DNA of 28,424 nucleotides from an uncultured Gammaproteobacteria bacterium (lineage in GTDB: Bacteria > Patescibacteriota > Microgenomatia > Daviesbacterales > UBA10151), in assembly GCA_964560075.1 (NCBI GenBank), contig CAZLKE010000007.1, forward strand, positions 474 to 28,897, read 5' to 3'. Positions 5,037-26,948 of this stretch are shown here, in pieces (the stretch's first letter is position 1; every line of letters begins with the position of its first letter). Position numbers and translations under genes: made by a program. The notes under the pieces were generated by a model, which saw only the letters and a program-made list of their open reading frames with translations, did not search any database and had not been told where the DNA came from.

Positions 5037-5070
5037 TTACAGGAAGTTTTCATCATTTGGGCCGGTAACT

Positions 5071-5130
5071 CCCGCCGTCAAGTAAAACATGACAGGCGGA
5101 TCCGCTAGTCCTGTTACACTGGACAGCGGG
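5071..5130. repeat. pair of 30-nt hairpin units in inverted orientation (REP/BIME-like)
   Basis: Unit 1 CCCGCCGTCAAGTAAAACATGACAGGCGGA. Unit 2 TCCGCTAGTCCTGTTACACTGGACAGCGGG. Each folds on itself; the reverse complement of unit 2 matches unit 1 at 23/30; symmetry centre GGA|TCC at 5100/5101. Confidence 0.8.
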
Positions 5131-5148
5131 CAGCGGTATAATAAGCTG

Positions 5149-5391
5149 ATGAAGTTTTATTATACATACGTACTAAAAAGTATAAAGGATCAAAAGCTAT
5201 ATATTGGTTCTACTGGTGATATTAAGGAAAGATTTAAAGCACATAATCAAGGAGAGGTGAAGTCAACTAAAAACAGAAGACCATTTAACCTAATTTATTT
5301 TGAAGCATGCCAAGATAAAAAGCAGGCAGAAAAAAGAGAAAAATATTTTAAAACAGGTTATGGAAGAAAATTTTTGAGAGATAGAATATAA
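5149..5391 (+). CDS. small GIY-YIG nuclease (SLX1/UPF0213-like), 80 aa
   Basis: YTYVL...LYIGST...R...HN.G...ST..RRP...YFE...A..RE. ATG at 5149 lies 6 nt after TATAAT (5137-5142). The stop ends 1 nt before tRNA-Lys. Confidence 0.9.
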   Translation: MKFYYTYVLKSIKDQKLYIGSTGDIKERFKAHNQGEVKSTKNRRPFNLIYFEACQDKKQAEKREKYFKTGYGRKFLRDRI

Positions 5392-5392
5392 T

Positions 5393-5467
5393 GGGCCGGT
5401 AGCTCAGTGGTAGAGCAGGAGACTTTTAATCTCTTGGTCCAGGGTTCGAATCCCTGTCGGCTCACCA
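5393..5467 (+). tRNA. tRNA-Lys (anticodon TTT)
   Basis: Cloverleaf GGGCCGG-TA-GCTC/GAGC-GGAGA CTTTTAA TCTCT-CAGGG TTCGAAT CCCTG-TCGGCTC-A-CCA. Confidence 0.96.
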
Positions 5468-5510
5468 AAAAATTGACCATACTACTAAAACCTGTCACAA
5501 TAAATACAAG

Positions 5511-6287
5511 ATGCAAAAGGGGTTTGCTCTCCCGTCTTTCATTTTAAAAATACTAATTGGTATCGGAGTTTTGATCCTGATATTCGGAGGAGCATCGCTT
5601 TTCTCTATCTTTTCCAACCAAAATGTTCCTCCCCCACAGATTACGGCAAATTTCGTCAACTTAGATAAAGTGGAAAAGATCTCCAGGTTTAGAAGCTGTA
5701 CCGGACATGTTGTCGTACCCCAAAACGAAAAAGAAAGCAAAAGAAATATGAAGCATTATTTGTGGGAAAAGAAAGAAAACCGTGGAGCAGATAAAGTGGT
5801 AGAGATCTATGCTCCTTTCGATGGGTATATTACATTGATTTTTTCACTAAATGATAATGAACAGGAATTATGGATTTCTCCTCGGCGCATGTTTGCCAAT
5901 CTCCCACCAGTTGGGATGTGGAGTTTTAGTGCTGAGCATATTAAGGTTAAAGACGGGCTAAAAACTGGGGATAGAGTTAAGGCTGGTGAGTTGGTTGGTT
6001 TTACGGGATTTCTGGATGATTATTACTCATTTGATGCGATCTATGGCAAGATTGGGCTACCACCTAAGAAAATTGATAACTGGTTATCACCGTTTGCAGA
6101 TTTGGATTCTGTATTCAATCATATGAGTGACGAAGTTTTTGCGCAGTTTCAACAAAAAGGAGTTGTTTCAAGAAAGCAAATGATAATTAGTAAAGAAGAA
6201 AGAGATCAAAATCCTTGTGATTACCGTGGTGAAGGACCTGAGCTTATGGAAGTTAATCTTGATAATAGTTGGGTAGAGTTACATTAA
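5511..6287 (+). CDS. membrane-anchored/secreted hypothetical protein, weakly M23/LytM-like
   Basis: N-terminus MQKGF followed by a hydrophobic helix. APFDG and VKAGELVG resemble M23-fold motifs. Promoter TTGACC-17-CACAAT upstream. Confidence 0.6.
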   Translation: MQKGFALPSFILKILIGIGVLILIFGGASLFSIFSNQNVPPPQITANFVNLDKVEKISRFRSCTGHVVVPQNEKESKRNMKHYLWEKKENRGADKVVEIYAPFDGYITLIFSLNDNEQELWISPRRMFANLPPVGMWSFSAEHIKVKDGLKTGDRVKAGELVGFTGFLDDYYSFDAIYGKIGLPPKKIDNWLSPFADLDSVFNHMSDEVFAQFQQKGVVSRKQMIISKEERDQNPCDYRGEGPELMEVNLDNSWVELH

Positions 6288-6317
6288 GGGGTTCCAATCA
6301 CGGACAGCTGGCTCACT

Positions 6318-6545
6318 ATTCTTACTAAAATTCAACAATCTGCATCAAAAAGAGCAAACATCCCTGAGTCTAAAAGAAAACCGTTTTTTATATGTAGATG
6401 AGTTCCAGAATTTTGCTACCCTTCATTTATTCAAATGCTATCAGAAGGTAGAAAATATAACAGCGGGTTACTATCGCCGAGCAATCAACTTCCCAGCAGG
6501 ACGACAGGAATATTGTTAATGTAATTCTTGCCAACGTCACAACAA
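6318..6545 (+). pseudogene. frameshifted fragment of a VirD4/TraG-like (FtsK/HerA superfamily) ATPase
   Basis: Stitching frames gives ILTKIQQSASKRANIPESKRKPF/LYVDEFQNFAT/SFIQMLSEGRKY/TIAEQSTSQQDDRNIVNVILANVT (Walker B region). At least three frameshifts (about 6390, 6420, 6465). Confidence 0.75.
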
Positions 6546-6565
6546 GAGAAATATTTATAAATACT

Positions 6566-7201
6566 TTATGCAGCAACCCGGAAGACTACTATAGCTTCTG
6601 AGGGGTCGATTTTGGGTGAAGCCTCAGATTCCGCATGTGTTCTAATATAATCTAACATCTCCGCGGTAAATGGAGTATTTTCCGGTAGGGCTAAGGCAAC
6701 TTCTGGCGGCCTCTTGTCAGAGGGGTCATAATCTGGCTGATCTACGGTTAAAGCAAATACAAGCCTCTTCTTTTGTTTGCTTGCTGCATCTCTCACATCC
6801 CACCTCGCCGAGTTAATAGCAAAGGGTGTAAGCAAGTTTTTTCTATAAGCTGCAAGATCTCTTTTCTTGCTAAGATTTAATATCCGGTAAGGTCTTCCAT
6901 CGTCTACGCTAAGGATAGCTTCTACTGTTCTGCCAGGAATGTTGGTAGGATTTTCACTCCCTGTCACAACTTTTGATAAACCATTAAAGAATTCGCCAAG
7001 TCTTGCAAAATTAACAGCCCCATGCCAGACAAAACCATGGGTTTCGTTATCAGGATATTTAAAGTATGCACCTAGGTGGTTTTCTGGTTTAATTGGATTA
7101 TCAGGAGTACCTGCAGTGTATATTAGAAATGATCGAAAGGTTCTATCGGGAACTCGTTCTCTATGTCCAGTATATTCGCGGAGTTCGATTAATGCTGGCA
7201 T
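6566..7201 (-). CDS. hypothetical protein
   Basis: 211-aa ORF, no recognisable motif. Confidence 0.6.
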   Translation of the reverse strand: MPALIELREYTGHRERVPDRTFRSFLIYTAGTPDNPIKPENHLGAYFKYPDNETHGFVWHGAVNFARLGEFFNGLSKVVTGSENPTNIPGRTVEAILSVDDGRPYRILNLSKKRDLAAYRKNLLTPFAINSARWDVRDAASKQKKRLVFALTVDQPDYDPSDKRPPEVALALPENTPFTAEMLDYIRTHAESEASPKIDPSEAIVVFRVAA

Positions 7202-7327
7202 GTGATTTACTTATATCATAAAAAATAGCCTGCTTCAATACAGTGCGCACAATCTGCCTAAAGCAGATGAATTATTTATATGTAGCTTTAGCTTTTCTTC
7301 TTATTCTTTTAATACCTCTTTCAGCTA

Positions 7328-7350
7328 AAAAGGCGACCCCCCCCGAGGCT
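7328..7350 (+). repeat. dispersed repeat AAAAGGCGACCCC-N3-CGAGGCT, copy 1
   Basis: AAAAGGCGACCCC-CCC-CGAGGCT; same frame as the copies at 13729-13751 and 14154-14176 (reverse). Confidence 0.8.
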
Positions 7351-7426
7351 ACTTCTGTAAAACTTTCTTACAAATTCTTACATTCCTCTTACACATCTCT
7401 GTTATTTTTAGTTTATAAAAGAGCGT

Positions 7427-7843
7427 ATGTCTTTAGCTAAAGAAGTTATTCCAAATAACCAGGAGGTAGTTTCTGCACAATCTGAAACAGTTTATCCAGT
7501 AAAAAAAAGCGAGCCATTACAAGAAATTCCTCCTCCGCAAGCTCAGCCCGAACAAGTTGAAAAGCCTTTGGTTAAAGAGATGGAGAAACGTTTAATTAAG
7601 GCTCTTAAACAAGTTCCTCCAACAATCACAAACCATACAGAAAGAATTATAGCAGCGCAACGAATTGTTATGGATCAGTTGCAGAAAGAAAAAGCTGAAC
7701 AGCAAAGACCATCTTTAGAACCACCTTTTGCAAGCGGTGCTTTAAGTAGAGATGAACGCAGAAGATTTCTTGAAGAGCATACGAAAAGAAGCAGCCAACT
7801 GGCACGGCAACATAAACCAACCCCACCAAGACGCATGCGTTAA
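7427..7843 (+). CDS. hypothetical protein (Pro/Gln/Glu/Arg-rich)
   Basis: 138-aa ORF, low complexity, no family motif. Confidence 0.55.
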   Translation: MSLAKEVIPNNQEVVSAQSETVYPVKKSEPLQEIPPPQAQPEQVEKPLVKEMEKRLIKALKQVPPTITNHTERIIAAQRIVMDQLQKEKAEQQRPSLEPPFASGALSRDERRRFLEEHTKRSSQLARQHKPTPPRRMR

Positions 7844-7850
7844 TGAATTA

Positions 7851-8180
7851 TCAAATATTGTGATCCTCACCTAACAAAGATATCTCCTTTAAATAATCCT
7901 TCATCTCCTGGACTAACTTTTCCCGATCTATTCTGGGATCATCCTTATTAAAAGATCCCTTAAATCTATGGCTTACAATTTGCACTAAAGCCTCCACCAT
8001 CTGAGCACTACCTTTACCGGATAAGGATTCCAGCATTTGCCTTGCTGCAAAGGCCGGCTCCATTTTTGCGGATGCAAGAGCGTCCAGTACATAAGATGTA
8101 GCCACAATACGCTCAGCACTTATAGGTTTAGGCTGCTTTTCTGGCGAAGGTGGGTTATTCAGAGGCCTTTCTGCTGCCAT
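7851..8180 (-). CDS. hypothetical protein
   Basis: 109-aa ORF convergent on 7427-7843. Confidence 0.55.
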   Translation of the reverse strand: MAAERPLNNPPSPEKQPKPISAERIVATSYVLDALASAKMEPAFAARQMLESLSGKGSAQMVEALVQIVSHRFKGSFNKDDPRIDREKLVQEMKDYLKEISLLGEDHNI

Positions 8181-8272
8181 GAAAGATCTTTATATATTAG
8201 GAATGTAAATTTTAGTTAAAAAAAATGTAAATAATGTAATAGAAAATTGACAGTGTGTTAGAATATTTGAGC

Positions 8273-9277
8273 ATGTCTAAAAAGATCCTTGTCACAGGCG
8301 CTGGGGGATATATCGGGTCAGTCACTACTTACCTCCTACTTCAAAAAGGCTACCAGATCATTGCAATAGATAACTTCTCAACCGGGTTTGAGGGCCCGCT
8401 TAAGTTGCTTCAAGAGAAGTTTGGTAAAGAAAAATTACATTATCAAAAATTAGACCTTAAAGACGATCTCAAAGAGTTTTCTGACAAGCAAAAAGACATA
8501 GAAGCTGTTGTCCATTTTGCAGCTTCCCTTTCTGTTAACGAATCAATGGAAGATCCTGCTAAATATTTTTCCAATAATGTCTCTGGAACCCAAAATCTTC
8601 TTAGAAACTTACTTGAAAATGATATTAAAAATATCATCTTTTCTTCTACTTGTGCAACGTACGGTGAGGCGGAGTATGTACCAATCAATGAAAAACATCC
8701 AACAAACCCAACTAATCCTTATGGGGAATCAAAAAGAATAATAGAACAGATGATTGAGTGGTATGGAAAACTTAAAGGATTAAACTACGTAGTTTTAAGA
8801 TATTTCAATGTTTGCGGAGCAACCGATGACGGCCTTATCGGAGATTCTAAAAAACCATCAGTTCATTTAATGCAAAACACTGTCCGGGGAGCACTAGGGC
8901 TAGAACCTTTTTATTTAACTTGTCCAGAGGTCGATACTCCAGATAAAAGCCCAATACGAGACTACGTGAATGTGGTTGATTTAGCTGGTGCGCATGTTAA
9001 AGCATTAGAGTATCTATTAAATGGAGGCAATAGCGAAATTATAAATGTCGGAACAGGAGAAGGAAATTCGGTTCTAGAAATAGTCAGAAAAGTCGAAGAA
9101 ATAACCGGTAAAAATTTAAATGCCAAACAAGGTCCAGCCCGTCAGGGTGAATATGCCAAAATGATCGCTTCAACTAAGAAAGCTAAAGAAATCTTAGGCT
9201 GGGAACCAACTCATTCTTTGGAAGATTCTGTTAATTCCTTGGTTAAATGGTACAAAAATCATCCGGCCGGTTGGTAG
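8273..9277 (+). CDS. galE: UDP-glucose 4-epimerase
   Basis: TGAGGYIG, HFAA, FSSTCATYG, YGESK (YxxxK), LRYFN, RDYVNVVDLA. ATG at 8273 follows TG-T-TAGAAT; the ORF-track start at 8255 overlaps the promoter. Confidence 0.92.
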   Translation: MSKKILVTGAGGYIGSVTTYLLLQKGYQIIAIDNFSTGFEGPLKLLQEKFGKEKLHYQKLDLKDDLKEFSDKQKDIEAVVHFAASLSVNESMEDPAKYFSNNVSGTQNLLRNLLENDIKNIIFSSTCATYGEAEYVPINEKHPTNPTNPYGESKRIIEQMIEWYGKLKGLNYVVLRYFNVCGATDDGLIGDSKKPSVHLMQNTVRGALGLEPFYLTCPEVDTPDKSPIRDYVNVVDLAGAHVKALEYLLNGGNSEIINVGTGEGNSVLEIVRKVEEITGKNLNAKQGPARQGEYAKMIASTKKAKEILGWEPTHSLEDSVNSLVKWYKNHPAGW

Positions 9278-10017
9278 GGTATTACAAATCTTTCCAGAGT
9301 ATCAGCCAGGCCGTCTTTTTCTACTGTCGGAGCGATATAGTCTGCTACTACCTTTAGATCCGGTACTGCATTCCCCATTGCAATTTTCAATCCGCAAGCC
9401 ATTAAAAGAGGAAGATCATTATATCCGTCTCCTATTCCAATCATTTCTTTAGGCTTGATATCCAATATTTTAGCGATTTCAAAAACAGCGTATTGCTTTG
9501 TGGCTTTGGGGTTGGTAATTAAAACATCTACACGATCTGCATAGACAGAGGCTTTATTGACAATTACATCCTCTATATCCGATAACTTTTGTGTTATTCG
9601 CTCTGCTTGTTCTTGAGTTACTTTGTTTGCAACCACTACAAATGGTTTATCTGGTGTGTAGTTTCGATAGAAGAAATCTACCCCATTATCCTGTATCCAC
9701 CAACTTATATTTAGATTCTTCAGCCTTCTGCAAACTTCAAATAAAGCATTTTTATCAATCGGGTGCTCAACAATCATCTTCCCTGTTCTTGCCTCAACTA
9801 CTTGAGCTCCATTACTCAATATCGACGGACCGGAAAGGTTTAAATATTCAAAAAGGTGCTTTGTTTTTTGATATTGTCTAGCTGTTGCCAATCCAAAATG
9901 AATTTTTTTCTTGGCTTCCAAAATAGCATCCCGAACCCGATCAGAAGGCAAAACTTCACTGCCCTCAACTAAAGTTCCGTCTATATCTGAGATCACTGCT
10001 TTAACTTGTCTTGTCAT
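9259..10017 (-). CDS. Cof-type HAD-IIB hydrolase
   Basis: DIDGTL (motif I), ATAR (II), ATK (III), GDGYNDL (IV), AMGNA. Confidence 0.9.
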   Translation of the reverse strand: MTRQVKAVISDIDGTLVEGSEVLPSDRVRDAILEAKKKIHFGLATARQYQKTKHLFEYLNLSGPSILSNGAQVVEARTGKMIVEHPIDKNALFEVCRRLKNLNISWWIQDNGVDFFYRNYTPDKPFVVVANKVTQEQAERITQKLSDIEDVIVNKASVYADRVDVLITNPKATKQYAVFEIAKILDIKPKEMIGIGDGYNDLPLLMACGLKIAMGNAVPDLKVVADYIAPTVEKDGLADTLERFVIPYQPAG

Positions 10018-10119
10018 TAGACAAAATGTTAGCTCTGTTTTTTTAATACTTAGTAAAGAAAAGATGTGGTAAGTGTAAGATATCGAGAGAAATCAGATTA
10101 TTTTGGTATAATTCGGATA

Positions 10120-10474
10120 ATGATTAAACATAATATCATTTACAATCCCTTTTCCGAGTGGAAAGCAGATAGCGAAGAAAGACGGTGAGTATATTAGAGA
10201 AGTACTCACAGATCAAATTGGTAACCTTCCTAATGTAGGAAATATTAGAGGTAAGGGGATGGAAATCGGGATTGATTTTGTAAAAGACAGACAATCAAAA
10301 GAAAAGAATACAGAAGTATTAAAAAGAGTTATCAAAACAGCTTGGGAGAATGGGTTAAATCTTAATTCTGATAACGAAAGCAACATTCAGTTAATGCCTC
10401 CTCTTACTATTGATAGAAAAGACTTAGATAAAGGACTAGAGATTCTAATTGATAGCGTCAAAAGATCGATATGA
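10120..10474 (+). pseudogene. class-III aminotransferase with a large internal deletion
   Basis: ATG at 10120 reads MIKHNIIYNPFSEWK...stop. A different frame from about 10170 reads AKKDGEYIREVLTDQIGNLPNVGNIRGKGMEIGIDFVKDRQSKE...IQLMPPLTI, a typical class-III aminotransferase C-terminus. No PLP-lysine domain is present. Confidence 0.75.
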
Positions 10475-11040
10475 AAAGAGTAGTAATTGTCCATTGTTGG
10501 GAAGGATACCCTAAATATTGTTGGTATCCAGAGGTGAAAAAAGAATTAGAAGATGAAGGTTTTGAAGTAAAAGTTCCAGCAATGCCGGAAACTGATTTTC
10601 CTAAACTCTTTTTATGGATCCCTAAGTTAAAAGAAATTGCTGATGAGCCAAGCGAAGATTTATATTTGATAGGTCATAGTGTTGGTGTAATTACTATTTT
10701 AAGATATTTAGAGCACTTGGAAGAGGGTAAAAAAGTTGGCGGTGTTGTAATGGTAGCTGGATTTACAGATGATTTAGATTATGAAGAATTAAAAAACTTT
10801 TTTGAAACTCCAATTGACTTTGAAAAAATAAAAACAAAATCCAAACACTTTACAGCGATTCATTCTGACAATGACCCTTATGTTTCTTTAAGGCATGGAG
10901 ATATTTTTAAAGAAAAACTTGGAGCAGAATTAATTGTAAAGTACAACATGGGACATTTTTCTGGCCCGGTAGATGATACAAAAAGTGTAACCTCTCTTCC
11001 TGAAGTAGTAGAAGCTATTAAGGAAACGTCAGGAGAATAG
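10471..11040 (+). CDS. RBBP9/YdeN family alpha/beta hydrolase
   Basis: IVHCW, GHSVG nucleophile elbow, HSDNDPYV (Asp), GHF (His). Confidence 0.88.
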   Translation: MKRVVIVHCWEGYPKYCWYPEVKKELEDEGFEVKVPAMPETDFPKLFLWIPKLKEIADEPSEDLYLIGHSVGVITILRYLEHLEEGKKVGGVVMVAGFTDDLDYEELKNFFETPIDFEKIKTKSKHFTAIHSDNDPYVSLRHGDIFKEKLGAELIVKYNMGHFSGPVDDTKSVTSLPEVVEAIKETSGE

Positions 11041-11098
11041 ATTAATGAACCATTATCATTTTGTACCCATCAATCAATATATTAACTATGTTGTTCTA

Positions 11099-11125
11099 AC
11101 GTCAGATTAAAAATCCGTCTGACGT
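11099..11125. terminator. hairpin between convergent genes, possible bidirectional terminator
   Basis: ACGTCAGA-N11-TCTGACGT 8-bp stem; no clear U-tract. Confidence 0.4.
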
Positions 11126-11147
11126 GTGTAAGAAGAAGAAAATAGCT

Positions 11148-12959
11148 TTACTGATATCCCTTGGCTTGGAGAGTAAACATTTTGGTGTATTTACCATCTA
11201 CTTTAAGCAGTTCTGCATGAGTACCACTTTCGGTAATTTTACCCCCTTCGACAACAAAAATCCTGTCTGCATTACGCACAGTAGAAAACCTGTGGGAAAC
11301 TAAAATAAGGGTCTTGGTGGTATAAGCTTTTTCAAGGTTATTAAATATTTGGTATTCTGCTTCAGCATCGATCGCACTTGTTGGCTCATCCAGAATCAGT
11401 ACTGGTGCACCTTCATAAAAAGCCCTGGCTATTGCAAGTTTCTGCCACTGCCCTCCAGATAATTCTTCCCCATCTGCAAACTCCCGTCCAAGTAAGGTAT
11501 CAAACCCTTTAGGAAGAGATTGGATAAAATCATAAGCTCCAGATTTTATAGCAGCTTGCTTCATTACATCATGATCATGTTTGGAAGGGTTACCAAGGGT
11601 AATATTATCTTGAACCGTAAAGTGGTACTGGACAAAATCTTGAAAAAGCGTACCTAAAAAATCATACCAGTGTGAAAGTTTAATGTCTTTTAGATTAACA
11701 TCATTAATAAGTATCTCACCTGAGGTTACATCATAGAAACGGCAAAGGAGTTTAATGATTGTAGATTTTCCTGCTCCGTTTTCTCCCACAAACGCCACGT
11801 TTTCACCAGGCTGAATAACAAAAGAAACACCATCCAACACTTTATGTCCATTTGGATATTCAAAGTATACATTCCTAAATTCAATCTTTGGCGGTGCTAT
11901 AGATTTAAAAACATGAGGTTGTCCTGAGTCTTTTATAAGTTCTGGCAACGCAAGTACATCAAAATAATGATCTACAAAAAGACTATTAGTATACATTTCT
12001 CCATAATTTATAACTGCTGAACCGACCTGACCGTTGAGGTTATCAATCATATTAATAAGCAAAGCAAAACTTCCTACTGTAAGTATTCCAGTAAAGACAT
12101 CTGGCAATTTAAGGGATGCAATTATAAATAATACCATTACCTCCAAAACAACCGGTGCCGTTAAAATGCCCATATACTCATCCAGAGGTTTTTTATTTAA
12201 ACGAAATAGATATTCTTGCGTTTCCTTAAATTTTCTTAGTAATTCTCCCGATGATTTAAAAATCCGCATCTCTCTAATGGCAGTAGGATCTGATAGCAAC
12301 CAAGTAAAATACCAAAGCCTTCTGTTTTCCTCTGCACCAGCTCCCCAAAAAGACCACTGGACATTTCCATATCTTGAGCGAAGGTATAAAAACGGGAGAC
12401 TGGTGAGTATAACTGCAACTGGTACCCACCACCCAAATGCAAGAAGAATAAATAAAGACGCAATACCCGAGACAATATTACTTAAAAAATAAGAAAAATT
12501 TCTAAGCATGTCCGGCAAACGCCATAGCATACTGTCCCGGGCTTTTGTGATCAGATTTTGGGATACCGGATCTTCTAAATGAGCAATATCAAGAGCAGAA
12601 AGCCTGCTATAGAATTTATAAGCTATAAAATTCTGAAGCTTATAACGCATCAAGGTATCGAAGTACATGTTTTGTAATGTCCAGTTGGTAATATTACTGA
12701 TAAAAGTAACAAGATAACGAGCGCCTAAAATAATTATTACCAGAAGAGGTATTTCCCTGGTTGTAATGTTGTCTTGTATCAGACTATCAATTAGGTATTT
12801 TAAGGTTAAACTTGCCAAAATAGCCGTTATTGCAGCAAACGCTCCGGAGAGAAAATATCCGATAACAAGTTTTTTGTCCATTTCCCAGGCCAAACCCAAC
12901 ATCTTTTTAAGATTTTTTAGGGTTTGCCGAACTACTTTGGTTGATTGACGTATCTTCAT
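11148..12959 (-). CDS. ABC exporter, fused permease/ATPase
   Basis: N-terminal transmembrane domain, Walker A GENGAGKST, signature LSGGQWQK, Walker B LILDEPT, SHRFST. Confidence 0.93.
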   Translation of the reverse strand: MKIRQSTKVVRQTLKNLKKMLGLAWEMDKKLVIGYFLSGAFAAITAILASLTLKYLIDSLIQDNITTREIPLLVIIILGARYLVTFISNITNWTLQNMYFDTLMRYKLQNFIAYKFYSRLSALDIAHLEDPVSQNLITKARDSMLWRLPDMLRNFSYFLSNIVSGIASLFILLAFGWWVPVAVILTSLPFLYLRSRYGNVQWSFWGAGAEENRRLWYFTWLLSDPTAIREMRIFKSSGELLRKFKETQEYLFRLNKKPLDEYMGILTAPVVLEVMVLFIIASLKLPDVFTGILTVGSFALLINMIDNLNGQVGSAVINYGEMYTNSLFVDHYFDVLALPELIKDSGQPHVFKSIAPPKIEFRNVYFEYPNGHKVLDGVSFVIQPGENVAFVGENGAGKSTIIKLLCRFYDVTSGEILINDVNLKDIKLSHWYDFLGTLFQDFVQYHFTVQDNITLGNPSKHDHDVMKQAAIKSGAYDFIQSLPKGFDTLLGREFADGEELSGGQWQKLAIARAFYEGAPVLILDEPTSAIDAEAEYQIFNNLEKAYTTKTLILVSHRFSTVRNADRIFVVEGGKITESGTHAELLKVDGKYTKMFTLQAKGYQ

Positions 12960-13751: not shown

Positions 13752-13870
13752 GTTTTTTGTCCGGCTAATGGACAATCTCTAATTATTGAGATCGGTAATG
13801 CTTCAGGAGGAATCGATTATCTATTTAACAGGGTTAAGTATCATTTGGATCCTTGGGGAAAGGTAACAAG

Positions 13871-13944
13871 CGACCCCAACGGGAGTCGAACCCGTGATTT
13901 CAGGGATGAAAGCCCTGCGTCCTAGGCCACTAGACGATGGGGTC
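13871..13944 (-). tRNA. tRNA-Glu (anticodon TTC), CCA not encoded
   Basis: GACCCCA-TC-GTCTAGTGGCCTAGGAC-G-CAGGG CTTTCAT CCCTG-AAATC-ACGGG TTCGACT CCCGT-TGGGGTC-G. Confidence 0.95.
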
Positions 13945-14069
13945 AATATTAAGCTTTTGATGTTTATTAAGCTTCTCGACACCTTTGCTTTCTGAAGTCG
14001 CTCTGCGACTTAAGGCCACAATTCTCTTTTTCGGATGACGCATCCTCAAAAGTATGCCGATGGGGTCAA
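13935..14069 (-). repeat. direct duplication of the tRNA-Glu 5' end around a hairpin-rich spacer
   Basis: CGATGGGGTCAA occurs at 13935-13946 and 14058-14069 (12/12, 123 nt apart). The spacer holds triloop hairpins AAGTCGC-TCT-GCGACTT (13995-14011) and GGATG-ACG-CATCC (14033-14045). Confidence 0.75.
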
Positions 14070-14101
14070 AAATCCGCCAGAGGCGGATGACACTTCGTAT
14101 C

Positions 14102-14130
14102 ATTTTATCAAATCTGAAGCTGAAAGTCCA
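14102..14130 (-). promoter_or_regulatory. sigma70-type promoter for the tRNA-Glu locus
   Basis: Minus strand TGGACT, 17 nt, TAAAAT with extended TG. Followed by hairpin ATCCGCC-TCT-GGCGGAT (14072-14088) and then the truncated tRNA 5' end. Confidence 0.6.
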
Positions 14131-19092: not shown

Positions 19093-20400
19093 TAGCTTTT
19101 CCAAGATTTGCCTTAGTTTAGAAGTATCGGCTTTACCACCAGTTTTTCGCATCACATTACCGATAAAGGCTTGCAGGATTGTAGTTTTGCCTGCCTTGTA
19201 AGCTAATACGAACTGAGGACTCTCTTCAATTGTTTCTTTAGCTAACTTAGTCAGAGTCTCTTCATCTTCGATTATTCCTAACTTTTTACTTAAAATAACT
19301 TCAATAAGAGCTAGTGGTGTGGTTTTTTGGAAATCAACTTTTTGGTTTACGATATAGTTCGCAACTTGGCTTTCAGTCACATCTTTATCTTTACCAATAG
19401 TCACAGCATCCTCAAAAAAATTTGCTAAATTTTTGTTTTCAGTTAGAATTGAGGCATTAGCTTTTGAGATTTGATACTGCTGCACAAATCTCTTCATTTT
19501 TTCGTGAGGTAACTCAGGCGTTTCTTGCTTGGCTTTTAACTCTAGGTTCTGCAGTCTCATTTCAGGCAAATCTGGTTCAGGGAAATAGCGATAATCATGA
19601 GCTTCTTCTTTAGTTCTTTGAACATAAGTTTGTCTTTTATCCTCATCCCAACCTCTAGTTTCTTGGACTAACTTCTCTCCTTTTTCTAAGCTTTCAGTCT
19701 GACGCTTGATTTCATATTCCACAGCCTGAGCCATAAATCTAAACGAGTTAATATTTTTTAACTCTACCCGGTAATTTGGTAACTCTTTTTGGCCCACTGG
19801 GCGAACCGAGATATTAGCTTCAAGCCGCATATCTCCATGCTCCATATCAGCATTGGATACTCCTAAATATCTAAAAATTTGCTGGAGTTTTTTGGCGTAA
19901 TCTTTAATTTGAGCTGTATCTGTAAAATCCGGTTCTGTAACTATTTCAACTAGGGGTACATCTGAGCGGTTGTAGTCAATCAGAGTTTCATTTCCAGAAT
20001 GCATTAATTTCCCAGTATCCTCTTCCTGATGAGCCCTGTTAATTCTTACTATTTTTACTTCTCCTTTTTCATTCTCAACTTCAATCCAACCATTTATAGC
20101 AATTGGCAAAACAAGCTGAGAGATCTGATAACCTTTAGGCAGATCTGGGTAGAAGTAGTTTTTGCGCTCAAAGTAGCTTACTTTATTAACAGAGCAATTC
20201 AGGGCTAAACCAATTTTGATACAGTTTTCTATTGCTTGCTCATTTATATAAGGAAGCGCTCCGGGAAGACCTAAACACACAGGACAGGTGTGAGTGTTTG
20301 GTTCTTTACCAAAATAATCCGCGCTGCAGCGGCAAAACATTTTAGTTTTGGTATTTAGTTCTACATGGATTTCAAGCCCCATCACTGGTTCGTATTTCAT
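19081..20400 (-). CDS. gatB: Asp-tRNA(Asn)/Glu-tRNA(Gln) amidotransferase subunit B
   Basis: MGLEIHVEL, CPVCLGLPGALP, RKNYFYPDLPKGYQISQ, EIVTEPD, DYRYFPEPDLP. ATG at 20400 overlaps the gatA TGA. Confidence 0.97.
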   Translation of the reverse strand: MKYEPVMGLEIHVELNTKTKMFCRCSADYFGKEPNTHTCPVCLGLPGALPYINEQAIENCIKIGLALNCSVNKVSYFERKNYFYPDLPKGYQISQLVLPIAINGWIEVENEKGEVKIVRINRAHQEEDTGKLMHSGNETLIDYNRSDVPLVEIVTEPDFTDTAQIKDYAKKLQQIFRYLGVSNADMEHGDMRLEANISVRPVGQKELPNYRVELKNINSFRFMAQAVEYEIKRQTESLEKGEKLVQETRGWDEDKRQTYVQRTKEEAHDYRYFPEPDLPEMRLQNLELKAKQETPELPHEKMKRFVQQYQISKANASILTENKNLANFFEDAVTIGKDKDVTESQVANYIVNQKVDFQKTTPLALIEVILSKKLGIIEDEETLTKLAKETIEESPQFVLAYKAGKTTILQAFIGNVMRKTGGKADTSKLRQILEKLLSE

Positions 20401-21785
20401 AATTTTGGTTTCTCCTTGTACCAATCTGTTGATTTCTCATATACTTCACCAACATTTAAGATCGTTTCCTCATCCATATATTTTCCAAGTATTTGCAATC
20501 CAACTGGTAAGCCGTCCACAAAACCGCATGGAACAGAAAGTCCTGGAATACCGGCTAAACTGGCTGGAATTGTATAAACATCTGATAGATACATCATTAG
20601 TGGATCTGAAATCTTCTCTCCCAAATTCCAAGCAACAGTTGGTGAAACAGGTCCGACAATAACGTCGCATTTTTGGAAGGCTTTCTCAAAATCCTGTTTA
20701 ATTAAAGTTCGAACCTTAGCAGCTTTTGTAAAATAAGCTTCATAATATCCGCTAGACAGAGCAAAAGTACCCAACATAATTCTTCTTTTTGTTTCATCAC
20801 CAAAATGGTCTCTAGAATTACCAAATCTAATTCCGTCAAACCGAGCAAGATTTGAAGAAACTTCAGAGAACATCATGGTGTAATAAACTTCAACAGCGTA
20901 CTGGGTATGAGGTAAACTGATCTCCACAACCTCAACACCTAATTTAACCATTTGATCTATAGCGTTCCGGACAACTTTTTCAACATTTTTATCTAACCCC
21001 TCTCCGAAATACTCCTTAGGCACACCAATCTTGATTCCTTTAAGAGATTGCCGCGTCGGTCGCCTGAGGCGACCTCCTCGCAATGACGTCATTGCGAGAC
21101 CACGCAGTGGCGAAGCAATCTCGACGACATTTGAATCATATCCATCTGGTCCAGAAATCCATTCTAAAACTAACCTTGCATCTGCAACTGTCTTTGTAAA
21201 TGGACCAATTTGATCCAAAGATGAAGCCATAGCAATTGATCCATATCTTGAGACCCTTCCATAGCTTGGCTTAAGTCCAACAACCCCAGTTAAAGAAGCA
21301 GGCTGGCGGATAGAACCTCCAGTATCTGTTCCTAAACTAAACACACATAAATCGGCTGCAACGGCTGCAGCAGATCCGCTTGATGAACCTCCCGGTACTT
21401 TAGTTAAATTCCAAGGATTCTTTGTAGGTCCATAAGCAGAATTTTCTCCGGATGAACCCATAGCAAATTCATCATTGTTTAATTTCCCAATTATGTTTAC
21501 GTTTTGGGATTTAAGCTTTTTAATGACTGTTGCATCATAGGGTGGAATAAAATTACTCAAAATTTTAGATCCTGCCGTAGTTTTTATCCCCTGAGTACAA
21601 ATTATATCCTTTATTCCTGATGGTATGCCCTTAGTTTGATTCACAACCTCTAAAAAAGCATTAAGCTTTGGATTTAACGATTGAATTCTTTTTAGATAAG
21701 CTTCATTTAACTCTGATTCAGAGAACTTATTTTCTTTGAGGGCATCTATAGTTTGCAGTAAAGAAAGCGAAGTTAAATCACTCAT
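20397..21785 (-). CDS. gatA: amidotransferase subunit A, carrying an in-frame palindromic element
   Basis: IKD, GKLNNDEFAMGSS, PGGSSSGSAAAVA, GTDTGGSIRQPA, SSLDQIGP. Likely start MSDLT at 21785 overlaps the gatC stop. Confidence 0.96.
   Translation of the reverse strand: MSDLTSLSLLQTIDALKENKFSESELNEAYLKRIQSLNPKLNAFLEVVNQTKGIPSGIKDIICTQGIKTTAGSKILSNFIPPYDATVIKKLKSQNVNIIGKLNNDEFAMGSSGENSAYGPTKNPWNLTKVPGGSSSGSAAAVAADLCVFSLGTDTGGSIRQPASLTGVVGLKPSYGRVSRYGSIAMASSLDQIGPFTKTVADARLVLEWISGPDGYDSNVVEIASPLRGLAMTSLRGGRLRRPTRQSLKGIKIGVPKEYFGEGLDKNVEKVVRNAIDQMVKLGVEVVEISLPHTQYAVEVYYTMMFSEVSSNLARFDGIRFGNSRDHFGDETKRRIMLGTFALSSGYYEAYFTKAAKVRTLIKQDFEKAFQKCDVIVGPVSPTVAWNLGEKISDPLMMYLSDVYTIPASLAGIPGLSVPCGFVDGLPVGLQILGKYMDEETILNVGEVYEKSTDWYKEKPKL
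21044..21122. mobile_element. 79-nt bipartite palindromic element (RPE/REP-like) inside gatA
   Basis: GAGATTGC...GCAATCTC terminal inverted repeat, perfect 22-bp central palindrome CTCGCAATGAC|GTCATTGCGAG (21077-21098), internal hairpin GGTCGCC-TGA-GGCGACC (21058-21074). Confidence 0.8.
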
Positions 21786-22071
21786 TTTCAAATACTCCTT
21801 TTGTGGCAAAAAATCCATTCTTTTTTAAGCTTGCATTTTGAAGAGCCCCTTCCTGAGTCAAGCAATCTTTAGGAACATCTTCTGCCATGACACTAACTAC
21901 CTCAGACACATTATATGTAGAAGCTACTCCAGTCGTATCAACCTTATTCAGCTGGTCGATATAATCTAAAATTTTAGAAAGCTGATCAGAATATTCTTTA
22001 GTTTCTTCTTCAGTTAAAGGTAAATTAGCAAGTTTCGCTACGTGTTTGACCTGAGTCTCTGACAACTTCAT
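21778..22071 (-). CDS. gatC: amidotransferase subunit C
   Basis: VKHVAKLANL, ILDYIDQL..VDT, AL.NA....GFF; directly upstream of gatA. Confidence 0.95.
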   Translation of the reverse strand: MKLSETQVKHVAKLANLPLTEEETKEYSDQLSKILDYIDQLNKVDTTGVASTYNVSEVVSVMAEDVPKDCLTQEGALQNASLKKNGFFATKGVFENE

Positions 22072-22994
22072 ACCTTACCCTCCATAGCCATCAAGGCCTT
22101 AACTCTTTCCTGTATTGGAGGGTGAGTGTTAAAAAGATTAGCAAACCAACCAACTACCTCACTTCCTTTTAATGGATTTACAATGTAAAGATGTGCTGTT
22201 GCACGATTAGCAACCTCTAATGGTTCTTTATCTCCTGCTATTTTTTGCAAAGCATACGCTAGTTGTTCTGGATCCCGAGTAAGATAAGCACCTGAAGCAT
22301 CAGCTAAAAACTCTCTTCTTCTGGAAATTGCAAGTTGAATCAGTGTCCCAATTATTGGAGCGAGAAAAGCTGCAATTAGTGCAATAATTAAAACAATTTG
22401 ATTAGACTTATTTTCTGAATCTCTATTTCGTCCACCAAACCATGTGATTCTCAAAAACCAATCTGCCAAAAGTGCAACCAAACCTACTAAGATTGAAACT
22501 ACAGTCATAAGAAGGGTATCTCTATTTTTGATGTGAGATAACTCATGAGCAATAACCCCCTCCAACTCAGGTTTATTTAACTTATCTAAAATACCTGTAG
22601 TAAAGGCAACTGCAGAATGTTTGGGGTCTCTGCCTGTAGCAAAAGCATTAGGTGCGGAATCATTTATTATATAAACTTTTGGCATTGGCTGGCCTGAGGC
22701 TATTGATAAGTTTTCTGCTAACCTAAAGAGCTCAGGATGGTCTTGTTTTTGAATCTGCTTAGCACCTGAAATCGCTAGGACCATTTTGTCAGAATAATAA
22801 TAAGAGAAAAAATTCATAACCCCAGCGACGATAAAAGAGATTCCTACTAAACTTAAACCACTTGCTTCATCAAATCCAAGTCCCAAAGCAAAAATATAAG
22901 AAACAGCTACCGCAAAAATAGAAAAGAGAAACATTATTAACCATGTTTTAAATATATTTGAAGAGATTTGGTTCTGTGCCGTAGCTATAGCCAT
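22068..22994 (-). CDS. htpX: M48 family zinc metalloprotease HtpX
   Basis: PNAFATGR, HELSH, SRRREFLAD, THPP; transmembrane segments. Confidence 0.92.
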   Translation of the reverse strand: MAIATAQNQISSNIFKTWLIMFLFSIFAVAVSYIFALGLGFDEASGLSLVGISFIVAGVMNFFSYYYSDKMVLAISGAKQIQKQDHPELFRLAENLSIASGQPMPKVYIINDSAPNAFATGRDPKHSAVAFTTGILDKLNKPELEGVIAHELSHIKNRDTLLMTVVSILVGLVALLADWFLRITWFGGRNRDSENKSNQIVLIIALIAAFLAPIIGTLIQLAISRRREFLADASGAYLTRDPEQLAYALQKIAGDKEPLEVANRATAHLYIVNPLKGSEVVGWFANLFNTHPPIQERVKALMAMEGKV

Positions 22995-23010
22995 GAGTGT
23001 ATTATACAGC

Positions 23011-23562
23011 CTAGAAGTTAACTTTTATATCGGCTTTCTCTTCTTCAGTAGCTTTGAAGAATTCCTCTTGCCTAAAATTAAACATATTTGCAAAGATAAA
23101 ATTTGGGAAAGTTTGAAGTGAGGTATTAAAATCCAAAACATTTACATTATAAAACTGGCGAGCTGCAGCAACTTTAGTTTCAGTATCAGAAAGCTCTGTT
23201 TGAAGTTGTTTGAAATTTTCAGAAGCTTTTAAGTCTGGATAGTTTTCAGCAACAGCAAATAGCGATTTCAAAGCTCCTGTTAACATGTTATTAGCATCCG
23301 CCTGGTTATGCGGTCCTTTAGCTTCCATTAAGGCTGTTCGCGCTTTAGTAACCTCTGTTAAAACTTCTTTTTCATGCTTAACATAACCTTGAACAGTTTC
23401 AATTAAATTTGGAATTAAAGAGGATCTTCTTTTTAGCTGAACATCGATTTGAGAATAAGCCTCATGAACCCGGTTTCTTTTAATAATTAAGCTGTTATAA
23501 ATTGCAATTACAAAAACTACAATTAGAAGTAAGATTCCCCCAGCTATAAGTAATGCGGTCAT
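23011..23562 (-). CDS. lemA: LemA family protein
   Basis: N-terminal helix, YNSL...[33 protein letters not shown]. Confidence 0.93.
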
Positions 23563-25313
23563 GATTTAATATTAAACCAATCCGAAAACTTTTTCCAGTC
23601 CCAGGTATTAACAATGTCCTCTTCTGTGGCCCAACCACGCCTTGCAACCGCAATTCCAAACTTAATATTTTCCATTTGCGAAACTTCATGAGCATCAGAA
23701 TCAATAATAAGTTTTACACCAAATCCGATAGCCATCCTAACTAAGTCATCTCTAAGATCAAGCCTGTCTGGAAAGGAATTTATTTCAAGTAATTTTTTGT
23801 TTTGGGCACAAAACTTAAAGATTGGCTCCCAATCAGCATCATATGAATCTCTTTGGTTCAGAAGCCTACCTGTTGGATGAGCCAGTATATCAACATAAGG
23901 ATTTTTTAAAGCATTAAGGATTCGCTGTGTCATTTTATCCTTTTCCATCCGGTGTGAAGAATGAATACCAGCAATGACGTAATCTAGTGTTTTTAAAGCC
24001 TCATCTGGCACAGAAAGCTTCCCATTCGGAAGAATATCTATTTCGAGTCCATTTATTACTCGAACACTTTTTCCCGAGTACTTAATGTCTTCAATGAAAT
24101 TCGTACGTTTTTCAATAAGATTAATAATCTCTTTTTCGGAGTGGTTCGAGACAGACGGAGAATGATCGGAAATTCCAATATATTCATAGTTCAACTCGAT
24201 AGCCTTTTTAACAATCTCTTGGATTGAATTTACACCTGGACCATGCGATGGCTCCAGGGGAAAATCAGAATGTGTATGTAAATCACCTTTAATGCTTCCA
24301 TACTCAACAAGTTTTGGCAGCTCATACTTTAAGGCCGCGTCAATCTCATTTGTATCCTCTCGAAGCTCAGGAGGAGGTGTTTGCATATTTAGTAACTTAT
24401 AAAGTCTATCTTCATTTGGTATCTCTATTAACTTATTATGTTTTAAATCTTTAACCCCATGCTCACTTATAGAGTAACCTCTCTCTTCAGCTAAACCTCT
24501 TAAATGAATATTATGCTGTTTTGAGCCTGTAAAATGCTGTAAAATCGCCCCGAAACTCTCTGGCGCACCAACTAACAAATCCGCCTGAAAACCTGATTTA
24601 AGCAATACTGTCGCCTTCTCACGACCTTTATTCATCACACGTATAACATCAGGCATGTTGATAAAATGACCAACAACTTTCTCAGGATGTTTTGAAGACA
24701 CAGCAAAATCTAAATCTCCAATAGTTGCAACCCTCCTTCTTAAACTACCCAATGCTTCAACTGCTAAGACATCTTTGCTACTTTTTAGATTATCTAAAAT
24801 ACGCTCTGCATGAGCGAAAGCAATGGGCAGAAGTATGCGGCCTTTTTCAGACAAAGCTACAGATAGTCCCTGGAAGATATTAGCTAAAGTTTTTTCTGTA
24901 AAACCCCTTTCAAGCAACACACCGTTCTCAATTTTATTCCTAAGATCATCTATACTTTTGATACCTGTATCAACTATTTTTTTAGCAGTTTTGGGTCCTA
25001 TTTCTGGTATCTCTAATAGATCAAAAAATACTGGTGGCAAACCCTTGGTTATTACTTCAAAGTGCTTTACTCTTCCTGCCTTAAACAGTTCATCCAGGTG
25101 GCTTTGAATATTCTTTCCTATTCCTGGTACCTGATCTAACTTCTCCTCTTCCCACAAATCCTTAACCTCAGCTGTAGAGTGTTCTATGGCATCTGCTGCA
25201 GTCTCATAAGCACGGATTTGGAAGATACTGACATTTTTTAAAGTTAAGGCTGCAGCAACATCCCGAAGAAGCTTTGCAATCTCCTGGTTATTAAAACCGT
25301 ACTTCTTAGCCAC
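23559..25313 (-). CDS. polX: DNA polymerase X family with PHP domain
   Basis: AY..AA..I, GSLRR...TIGDLDF (DxD intact), [40 protein letters not shown] start at 25313 lies 6 nt after TG-T-TACTAT; the ORF-track extension overlaps tRNA-Asp. Confidence 0.93.
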
Positions 25314-25334
25314 AGATATATAGTAACACTTTAA

Positions 25335-25363
25335 TTGACCGAAGCTATACACTCTGATAAAAT
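25335..25363 (+). promoter_or_regulatory. sigma70-type promoter for tRNA-Asp
   Basis: TTGACC, 17 nt, TAAAAT with extended TG. Confidence 0.7.
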
Positions 25364-25373
25364 ACTCACACCT

Positions 25374-25447
25374 GGGGCCGTAGTGAAGAGGCCTATCACG
25401 TCTCCCTGTCACGGAGAAGAACGCCGGTTCGAATCCGGTCGGTCCCG
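25374..25447 (+). tRNA. tRNA-Asp (anticodon GTC); 3' end reads G-CCT rather than G-CCA
   Basis: GGGGCCG-TA-GTGA/TCAC-G-TCTCC CTGTCAC GGAGA-AGAAC-GCCGG TTCGAAT CCGGT-CGGTCCC-G. Confidence 0.94.
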
Positions 25448-25489
25448 CCTTCGTCTCGCTGAAGCTCGACTACGGCGGGTAAAACCCGC
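25444..25489. repeat. palindromic element overlapping the tRNA-Asp 3' end
   Basis: CCCGCC-TTC-GTC-N12-GAC-TAC-GGCGGG followed by GCGGGT-AAA-ACCCGC (25475-25489). Confidence 0.65.
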
Positions 25490-25718
25490 AAGTAGTTCGA
25501 GCGAAAGCGGAATTCCTCTCTGTTTTGGTACAATATACCCCAGATGTATTATGTTTATTTTCTTCTCTTAGGGAACAACACAATTTAGTAGCACCCTAGT
25601 AATTTGTGCCAAAAGTATCAATTGACATAGTTTGATCTATTGACAAGTTAACAAAAGTACGATAAAAATGGCTCAACATTTTTATCACTGCCCAAAATGA
25701 AAAAAAGGATTAACAGAA

Positions 25719-26465
25719 GTGGCAAAACAGAAAAAAACAGCTAAGCAAAAATCACAGACACAAAACCTCTCCCGCGTCACAGTCAGCAAGTCTCAAGAAG
25801 AAAATAAATCTTTCTTGCAAAAACTTCAAGAAGACTTGGACATCAAAGGTTCATACTTAAACTTAGTCCTTGGAGTTTTAATCGTTGTAGTTGCAGGAGT
25901 CTTACTTTTCAATTACTTCAACAAACCGAACGGAGACCTTGGTCCATCTCAAAATTCTAATCAAGAAACTAGCGAAACAACAGATGTAAGCAAAGAGAAT
26001 CTTCCTGGAAAATATACTGTTAAGGAGGATGATACTTTATACACTATAGCTGAAAAATATTACGGGGATGGATTTCAATTTAGCGAAATTGTAAAAACAA
26101 ATAATCTTGCAGATGAAAATGTAATTGAAGTTGGACAAGTTTTAGAAATTCCTAAAATAGAACTTGCTCAAGCAAATCCGACCCCTACCCCAACACCAGC
26201 TGCTAGCCCTAGTCCGATTCTTTCTGCTGATGCAGATTCACAAACTCAACCAGTTGCAGGAGGCAAAGGCGGAGCAGAGAATCAGACCGAGTGGGGTGAG
26301 AAAATTACTTCTGATACCTACACTGTTCAAGAAGGCGATTGGTTATCAAAGATTGCTGGTCGAGCTTATGGTGATATTTTCGTATATCAAAAGATTGCTG
26401 AAGCTAACAATATCGCAAATCCTGATGTAATCGAACCAGGAATGATCCTTAAAATCCCTAGATAA
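25719..26465 (+). CDS. membrane-anchored protein with two LysM domains
   Basis: Basic N-terminus, one transmembrane helix, YTVKEDDTLYTIA...YG...N.L...I.VGQVL.IP, PT-rich linker, YTVQEGDWLSKIA...YG...I.PG..LKIP. Confidence 0.92.
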   Translation: MAKQKKTAKQKSQTQNLSRVTVSKSQEENKSFLQKLQEDLDIKGSYLNLVLGVLIVVVAGVLLFNYFNKPNGDLGPSQNSNQETSETTDVSKENLPGKYTVKEDDTLYTIAEKYYGDGFQFSEIVKTNNLADENVIEVGQVLEIPKIELAQANPTPTPTPAASPSPILSADADSQTQPVAGGKGGAENQTEWGEKITSDTYTVQEGDWLSKIAGRAYGDIFVYQKIAEANNIANPDVIEPGMILKIPR

Positions 26466-26772
26466 ATTCATCTTCTATTTCGCTTCTGATGATATCAAAA
26501 CCTTCTGGGCAACCATTTGGTATTTGTCTTCTTAAATCTTTCACTGTAACTTTAGTAAGTTGAGCTTCCATAACTGGAGAAAGTCGCATGTTTCCAAATA
26601 ATTCTCTTCTAAAATCATCCCGTGCCAATAGCACATGACAACCAGGCTGTCCTTTATTAGCTAAAGATCTTGCATAAGAAGGACAACCTAAACTTCTGCA
26701 GACAACAGCTTTATCCTCCGTTAATACACCTTCTCTGACACTTTCAGGCAAGTCCTCAATCATTTTACGCAC
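26458..26772 (-). CDS. hypothetical protein (Cys-containing)
   Basis: 104-aa ORF convergent on the LysM gene, no family motif. Confidence 0.5.
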   Translation of the reverse strand: MRKMIEDLPESVREGVLTEDKAVVCRSLGCPSYARSLANKGQPGCHVLLARDDFRRELFGNMRLSPVMEAQLTKVTVKDLRRQIPNGCPEGFDIIRSEIEDEFI

Positions 26773-26842
26773 TTTATCACGTCTTTATTTGTATTTCAAA
26801 CACCAAATTTATGATCAGAAGGATGATATAATAACTACCGAC

Positions 26843-26862
26843 GCGGTGGTAGTTCAGCGGTA
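26843..26862 (+). pseudogene. orphan 20-nt tRNA 5' fragment (Gly-like)
   Basis: GCGGTGG-TA-GTTC-AGCGGTA matches the downstream tRNA-Gly 5' end at 14/20, including T8, A9, G10, A14, G15 and GG. It starts 10 nt after TG-A-TATAAT (26824-26832). Confidence 0.6.
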
Positions 26863-26874
26863 TCCGCCACATTT

Positions 26875-26948
26875 GCGGGATTAGTATAGTGGTAATACGT
26901 CACCTTCCCAAGGTGAAGTCGCCAGTCCGATTCTGGTATCCCGCTCCA
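26875..26948 (+). tRNA. tRNA-Gly (anticodon CCC)
   Basis: GCGGGAT-TA-GTAT/ATAC-G-TCACC TTCCCAA GGTGA-AGTC-GCCAG TCCGATT CTGGT-ATCCCGC-T-CCA. Confidence 0.93.

Follow-up and report, generated by a model that had tools for sequence, protein, structure and literature searches.

The 28,424-nt stretch of DNA that we analyzed (the window; positions 474-28897 of contig C7) belongs to an ultra-small groundwater bacterium of the Microgenomates, within the Candidate Phyla Radiation (CPR). Its genome is a metagenome bin of 1.03 Mb in 86 contigs (numbered with a C below) that is 98% complete, and near-identical contigs come from groundwater assemblies (Rifle-type). Coordinates without a contig number refer to the window. 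ARAGORN and Rfam agree on four tRNA genes in the window (Lys, Glu, Asp, and Gly) and on 34 in the genome. Upstream of tRNA-Lys, tRNA-Glu, and tRNA-Gly there is a displaced 5' end of a tRNA gene, which we will term an orphan, and the space between the orphan and the intact tRNA-Lys holds two GC-rich hairpins and a gene for a very small GIY-YIG nuclease (Table 1). Because tRNA-Asp carries a remnant at its 3' end, all four tRNAs in the window bear footprints. Comparisons within the genus are with one metagenome-assembled genome of Candidatus Daviesbacteria (the same-genus genome).

Table 1. Features of the four tRNA loci in the window.
Feature	Position	Strand	Remarks
Promoter-like site, TTGCCT-17-TATAAT	5008-5036	+	10/12 consensus matches; consensus match only
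Orphan tRNA-Lys 5' end	5058-5071	+	tRNA positions −1 to 9 exact, to 13 with one mismatch
Two GC-rich hairpins (5072-5099 and 5102-5129), left module of cassette	5072-5129	+	DNA fold −21.2 kcal/mol, z −3.7
Internal promoter-like site before nuclease ORF, GTTACA-18-TATAAT	5113-5142	+	Consensus match only
79-aa single-domain GIY-YIG gene	5152-5391	+	Stop codon 1 nt ahead of tRNA
Intact tRNA-Lys(ttt)	5393-5467	+	ARAGORN, Rfam
Intact tRNA-Glu(ttc)	13870-13944	-	ARAGORN, Rfam
Hairpin AAGTCGC-aga-GCGACTT	13995-14011	-	Two compensatory pair changes in same-genus genome
Block conserved between species, with hairpin GGATG-cgt-CATCC (14045-14033)	14025-14057	-	91% identity to same-genus genome
Orphan tRNA-Glu 5' end	14058-14069	-	tRNA positions −2 to 10 exact
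Triloop hairpin TCCGCC-tct-GGCGGA, then T run	14073-14087	-	Absent at equivalent spot in same-genus genome
Promoter-like site with TG-extended −10	14102-14130	-	Upstream of Glu orphan; kept in same-genus genome
Intact tRNA-Asp	25374-25449	+	ARAGORN, Rfam
Hairpins fused to tRNA-Asp 3' end	25445-25512	+	Resemble left end of 3'-type cassettes in relatives
Truncated GIY-YIG start, 14 codons, MYYVYFLL...	25544-25588	+	10/14 to nuclease beside a relative's tRNA-Asp
Orphan 5' end of former resident tRNA-Gly(ccc)	26843-26862	+	19/20 to same-genus tRNA
Junction TCCGCCACATTT (12 nt) between orphan and incoming tRNA	26863-26874	+	Read from sequence
Intact tRNA-Gly(ccc)	26875-26948	+	53/73 to same-genus genome, 63/72 to another genus

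These short "false starts" of tRNA genes are real and non-random. A preliminary description of the window had reported fragments before tRNA-Lys, tRNA-Glu, and tRNA-Gly, and all three are where it placed them. It had also suggested aligning all tRNA 5' ends against their upstream sequence, with shuffled controls. So, for each of the 34 tRNAs in the genome, we identified the longest exact copy of the 5' end within 500 nt upstream. Four of the 34 tRNAs have a copy of at least 9 nt (18, 10, 9, and 9 nt), and the other thirty have copies of at most 6 nt. In 300 shuffles, an average of 0.037 tRNAs per genome had a copy of at least 9 nt, with at most 1 in any shuffle. Copies in the downstream and reverse-strand controls were likewise no longer than 6 nt. 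All four upstream copies begin at tRNA position 1, plus or minus 2 nt. Two of these cases are outside of the window, at tRNA-Leu(caa) on C8 and at tRNA-Lys(ctt) on C15.

At tRNA-Lys(ttt), TGGGCCGGTA (5058-5067) is an exact copy of tRNA positions −1 to 9 (10 nt), at an offset of 334 nt. The insert is about 325 nt long and contains a single GIY-YIG open reading frame (ORF), which had been recognized in the preliminary description and which matches Pfam PF01541 at residues 3-72 of 79 (67.1 bits with a cut-off of 22.6, E = 1.8e-18). The site at 5008-5036, roughly 22 nt ahead of the orphan, is presumably the original promoter of tRNA-Lys. We found no Rfam match besides the tRNA in 4950-5480. A group I intron in tRNA-Lys was considered and rejected because no intron covariance model matched (as a positive control, the same search found an intron at locus L003 of a relative, discussed below).

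A second copy of this cassette lies before tRNA-Lys(ctt) on C15. The left modules of the two copies share 98% identity over 86 nt, and both follow the same 9-nt orphan, but the C15 copy has lost about 210-220 nt of the ORF and keeps only its last 30 nt or so. The flanks of the two cassettes differ right up to tRNA position 1. The shared left module and the different flanks imply one cassette family with two copies, one of which is an internal-deletion derivative. In the Logan assemblies there is also a joint that skips from 5144 to 5367; we rejected it as a polymorphism of the Lys(ttt) cassette because it is the paralogous ORF-less copy at Lys(ctt). The same-genus genome has two tRNA-Lys genes with neither cassette nor orphan, at loci that are not syntenic with the one here.

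As this is a fragmented metagenome bin and as Logan assemblies break near the repeat, we considered whether the orphans could be chimeric joins at repeated tRNA sequences. At tRNA-Lys this is refuted by nine independent contigs, from differing samples and assemblers, that are 100% identical across 4990-5480 (491 nt, including both junctions), and Logan contigs of other samples span both junctions as well. At tRNA-Glu it is refuted by the separately assembled same-genus genome, which has the same arrangement. An assembly artefact is thus extremely improbable.

The product of the Lys ORF belongs, by its sequence, to the minimal stand-alone GIY-YIG nucleases of the Slx1-like / UPF0213 group (we follow the classification of PMC1564403). 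Its best sequence matches in PDB are both UPF0213 proteins, 1zg2 (E = 3.5e-5) and 1ywl (E = 0.003). Among 32 aligned homologues, Y7, G20, R28, H32, and E64 are invariant, and Y18 is present in 31, so the nuclease is presumed to be intact from its conserved catalytic-type residues. It is 38% identical to a repeat-flanked paralogue on C25 of the same genome. The genome has a second kind of small GIY-YIG gene (C25:10672-10893, C44:3352-3573, and C46:5122-5193), with inverted repeats starting CGTCATTGCGAG on both sides. A third kind (C13:7010 and C20:14135) has other hairpin flanks.

Footprints are found at other tRNAs in the genome. At tRNA-Leu(caa) on C8, an 18-nt orphan is followed by a 20-nt perfect palindrome (CCTGCCTGCCGGCAGGCAGG), by tRNA positions 19-23, and by a GIY-YIG ORF (C8:17946-18194) that reads into the intact tRNA and has its stop codon at tRNA positions 19-21. 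In this lineage (C8, and locus L014 of relative G004), RNase P would strip the stop codon from the mRNA, which may limit expression of the nuclease. Six copies of this palindrome are dispersed over the genome (C4:6914, C8:17907, C24:13485, C24:15313, C25:13118, and C74:3317). The copy on C25 is read in frame, as PACRQAG, where a pilin-like ORF has its signal-peptide region, and the copy on C74 is nested in another repeat.

The preliminary description had spoken of insertion into tRNA 5' ends. The process is not restricted to these: mirror-image cassettes at 3' ends are the commoner form in relatives, and tRNA-Asp in the window has such a remnant, in which hairpins, a −10-like box, and the truncated start of the nuclease gene follow the tRNA. 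Another 3'-type remnant, a degenerate GIY-YIG ORF with a run of N inside (C13:8142-8264, minus strand), lies just 3' of tRNA-Gln(ctg) (8412-8483). Nor is there a common breakpoint at position 9/10, as had been suggested from the exact matches at Lys and Glu. At Lys, similarity extends to position 13; across this genome and its relatives, the breakpoints vary from position 7 to about 47.

At tRNA-Gly(ccc), the orphan reveals what was there before. In its acceptor and D-arm pattern, the 20-mer is tRNA-like. It agrees with the adjacent tRNA at 14 of 20 positions and with the host's tRNA-Gly(gcc) at 17 of 20, but it matches the start of the same-genus tRNA-Gly(ccc) at 19 of 20. That gene is at a locus with a common downstream flank (orthology of the locus is defined by about 45 nt of downstream flank only). 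As the orphan resembles the same-genus tRNA while the present tRNA is another allele, we conclude that a different allele took the place of the resident tRNA from position 21 on. The displaced end thus resembles the relative's gene more than it does the adjacent copy; this comparison is uninformative for the exact copies at Lys and Glu. We found neither a nuclease gene nor a convincing hairpin left at the Gly locus. The preliminary description had each fragment adjoining a promoter, which holds by consensus matches for Lys and Glu; for Gly, a promoter scan found none, and visual inspection reveals just an extended −10 (TGATATAAT, 26824-26832).

The Gly locus also bears on whether the orphans are target-site duplications, that is, whether a transposase-like activity made staggered cuts in the tRNA gene that were then filled in. 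Direct repeats do flank the insert, and the hairpin ends recall IS200/IS605-type and Ssn-flanked elements (PMC11893778). However, the repeat length is not fixed (9-13, 10-12, 18-23, 26, 36, about 47, and, in one relative, over 100 nt), and the two copies at Gly are different alleles rather than a duplication of one target. These variable lengths and the two Gly alleles argue against fixed staggered-cut transposition, which we regard as improbable.

The Glu locus is different in kind. There, TTGACCCCATCG (14069-14058) is an exact 12-nt copy of tRNA positions −2 to 10, at an offset of 123 nt. As the preliminary description had it, the spacer has hairpins only: we found no similarity to GIY-YIG in it. 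A 57-aa ORF that runs through the spacer was rejected as coding because the same-genus genome has a frameshift in it; any constraint is therefore on the nucleotides or the structure. Between the two species, identity is 11/12 for the orphan, 91% for the next 33 nt, and 91% for the tRNA itself, as compared to 35-60% for other parts of the leader. The pairing of the hairpin at 13995-14011 is maintained via two double substitutions. Because conservation of the orphan and of the 33 nt that follow it equals that of the tRNA, this is a maintained element and not a decaying scar; judging from these two sequences, it is old. Descent from a nuclease cassette is plausible. So, of the series from autonomous to non-autonomous to scar that the preliminary description had proposed, the ORF-deleted Lys copy and the Gly remnant fit, while the conserved Glu element, with no trace of a nuclease, does not.

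The conserved block at Glu is rare: in a search of 185,579 species genomes, only the same-genus genome matched. ORF-less 12-nt duplications with other hairpins are found at tRNA-Glu in two further genera, and another genus has an ORF-less 18-nt duplication at tRNA-Lys with the hairpin at position 18/19. Most tRNA-Glu and tRNA-Lys genes in related genera do not have such a leader. Separately, the triloop hairpin upstream of the Glu orphan belongs to a family (TCCGCC-NNN-GGCGGA) with a constant stem, a variable loop, and seven copies in the genome (the others are at C16:11650, C17:4275, C25:11098, C29:4275, C30:4150, and C69:1106). The 3' end of tRNA-Glu has an 8-nt copy downstream.

The conservation at Glu raises the possibility that the orphan and hairpin form a functional leader that is kept by the host, such as a signal for processing or attenuation that is able to pair with the tRNA's 3' acceptor strand. 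Besides the conserved sequence and the covarying hairpin, such a role would account for the orphan always lying within the transcribed leader (with promoters identified by consensus match). Yet many different tRNAs have this layout, with hairpins that are unrelated and a nuclease gene in between; the Gly orphan comes from another tRNA allele than the adjacent tRNA; there is no match to any Rfam family; and in related genera such leaders are missing from most genes for tRNA-Glu and tRNA-Lys. A host leader seems an unlikely explanation.

Relatives of the host show how common these arrangements are. Homologues of the Lys nuclease occur in 36 of 40 genomes of the same family or class, usually several in each genome. 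At about 24 of the 30 best GIY-YIG loci there is a co-oriented tRNA within about 200 nt, and at several further loci the tRNA is cut by the end of the contig or split by a group I intron. There are two layouts. In the first, an orphan 5' piece is followed by a hairpin, the ORF, and the intact tRNA. The second is its mirror image: the intact tRNA, a hairpin, the ORF, and an orphan 3' piece (for example, 15/15 of tRNA positions 59-73 at locus L023 and 17/18 of positions 57-74 at L026). The breakpoints of the 5' orphans lie between position 7 and about position 47, and a hairpin commonly splits or follows the orphan. Three genera have the palindrome of the Leu lineage inside the 5' half of a tRNA-Leu. 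In a tree of 32 nucleases, the well-supported clades are each of the 5' type or of the 3' type only, while the tRNAs and the host families vary, and the type of hairpin tracks the nuclease clade.

Two of the loci in relatives are more elaborate. At L003 (relative G029), the tRNA behind a 5'-type cassette holds a group I intron (915-1166, minus strand; Rfam, 87.8 bits), so two kinds of selfish element lie within one tRNA gene. At L029 (relative G026, 1380-1925), two identical pieces of the tRNA-Tyr 5' end flank the nuclease ORF, before the intact tRNA-Tyr. Each piece consists of positions 1-28, a hairpin, and positions 36-47, which suggests either repeated events or terminal direct repeats.

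These layouts also allow us to consider tandem duplication of a tRNA gene, with decay of the upstream copy and with nucleases and hairpins gathering at tRNAs because they are safe and well expressed. Clusters of tRNA genes are common, and in some relatives two tRNAs for the same amino acid flank a nuclease gene (L006). But the identity falls abruptly from exact to none at the junction rather than fading by degrees, and the junction coincides with a hairpin. The same cassette with the same 9-nt orphan at two loci, and layouts that follow nuclease clades, also speak against this scenario, which strikes us as quite improbable.

We consider it moderately likely that the orphans are instead the 5' ends of resident tRNA genes, left behind by small selfish cassettes that entered these genes. 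The anatomy, the non-random duplication, the multiple copies, the ORF-deleted derivative, the displacement of a resident tRNA, and the restriction of each clade to one layout are shown by the sequences. A full cassette would comprise a GC-rich hairpin module, a −10 box, and a gene for a GIY-YIG protein of about 80 aa, and would end at or overlap a complete tRNA; most likely, it carries a replacement tRNA end or a whole tRNA. Recombination triggered by the nuclease would copy the cassette into a homologous tRNA gene, using the tRNA sequence as the homology. The resident 5' end would stay beside its old promoter, and the tRNA would be transcribed jointly with the nuclease gene and freed by RNase P. 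Later, ORF-less derivatives and hairpin-only forms would persist. We infer the recombination route and the co-transcription of the ORF and the tRNA. Similarly, it is by analogy with the Ssn enzymes (discussed below) that the protein may be an active nuclease with specificity for hairpins or single-stranded DNA. On this account, the fragments are footprints of repeated insertion by one process, as the preliminary description had proposed, and nuclease-bearing and nuclease-less forms both exist.

Several observations weigh against selfish cassettes as the explanation. The Glu element is constrained and has no trace of a nuclease, so a role at the level of the host is possible there. At Gly, the entire tRNA is foreign, not just its 5' part. 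In relative G018, about 90 nt of leader is duplicated together with tRNA positions 1-18, which means that position 1 is not in every case where the duplication begins. The 79-aa protein has no DNA-binding domain, as the catalytic domain spans residues 3-72. The intact tRNA keeps any target that lies within the tRNA, so immunity to self-cleavage lacks an explanation, and the 9-12 nt of homology at Lys and Glu is very short for ordinary recombination. Finally, the cassette is present in all near-identical strains (by exact-protein look-ups), and a cassette-free syntenic Lys allele was not found by a DNA search of 25 family members or via homologues of the downstream 258-aa protein, as gene order is not conserved.

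A further possibility, which we think doubtful, is that a hairpin and a minimal GIY-YIG nuclease constitute a DNA transposon or homing element of a new class, whose choice of target is structural or related to RNA and does not depend on sequence recognition by a protein. One limit of the duplicated stretch is usually a mature tRNA end, either position 1 or the 3' end, and the other lies in the D, anticodon, or T arm; these are the boundaries of tRNA fragments. The cassette might insert into tRNA gene DNA that is single stranded and folded into a hairpin, or insertion might be guided or primed by a tRNA fragment. The 20-nt palindrome would be the minimal mobile part.

If selfish cassettes are the correct explanation, then the small genomes of CPR bacteria host abundant elements in their tRNA genes that are undescribed in the literature that we searched. 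Such cassettes could swap tRNA alleles between lineages, which bears on the evolution of tRNAs and on the use of tRNAs as phylogenetic markers, as well as on the annotation of "pseudo-tRNAs" and of small GIY-YIG ORFs. The nucleases, each with its cognate hairpin, would be among the smallest that are plausibly specific for a site or a structure, and they would, as with the Ssn enzymes, be candidate tools for single-stranded DNA. Hosts might even have co-opted such remnants, a question prompted by the conserved, nuclease-less element at Glu.

Our full-text literature searches returned analogues only, and tRNA-linked minimal GIY-YIG cassettes were not described there. The familiar elements that insert in tRNA genes are integrase-borne islands and prophages, which restore the tRNA and leave a partial repeat of it at the far end. 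Such elements span kilobases, carry a gene for a tyrosine or serine integrase, and generally displace the tRNA's 3' part. In contrast, the Lys cassette is about 325 nt long and encodes one 79-aa nuclease and no integrase.

A closer match in protein family is SegB of phage T4, a free-standing GIY-YIG endonuclease whose gene lies among tRNA genes and which cuts the tRNA region of genomes that lack SegB, thereby promoting its own inheritance (PMC2330249). However, Seg proteins have a DNA-binding domain, and their genes lie between intact phage genes, with no duplication of a tRNA end (PMC2330249). The cassettes encode no binding domain, are in a bacterial chromosome, and duplicate part of the tRNA.

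The only characterized relatives of comparable form are the Ssn nucleases. These proteins, exemplified by SsnA of Neisseria meningitidis (CDD cd10448), consist of a single GIY-YIG domain and are about 80-100 aa long. Cognate hairpin repeats (NTS/SRM) flank their genes and are also dispersed in the genome; the enzymes cut single-stranded DNA beside these hairpins and have been described as modulating transformation (PMC11893778). Small single-domain GIY-YIG genes with hairpins are what we see here too, and the genes on C25, C44, and C46 are flanked by repeats as with NTS. (Their inverted repeats begin CGTCAT, as NTS does, and the layout resembles NTS-ssnA-NTS.) The degenerate SRM motif (PMC11893778) has 2 matches in the genome, versus 0-3 in shuffles, and none at the cassettes. 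Also, the Ssn paper does not mention tRNA (PMC11893778), whereas the cassettes sit in tRNA genes.

The last comparison is with the mobile ORFs (mORFs) of fungal mitochondria, which are known from atp6 of Allomyces and from atp6, atp9, cox2, and nad3 of Glomus (PMC3630166). There, a free-standing endonuclease gene arrives in a conserved gene and brings with it a foreign replacement for that gene's end, and the native end is displaced but stays alongside (PMC3630166). The mORFs differ from the cassettes in that they affect the 3' end of protein-coding genes in organelles and encode LAGLIDADG or full-size GIY-YIG enzymes (PMC3630166). The cassettes target a bacterial chromosomal tRNA gene, their enzyme is no more than a domain of about 80 aa, and the unit includes a GC-rich hairpin; also, because the target is often the 5' end of the tRNA, a promoter must be supplied. 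As for an endonuclease ORF between the native and the inserted ends, Lys and Leu(caa) have one, and Glu and Gly do not. With mORFs, the native piece is nearer to the relative's gene than the functional copy is (PMC3630166), and this is what we find at tRNA-Gly. By analogy, then, the logic of the fungal mORFs appears to fit the cassettes best (PMC3630166).

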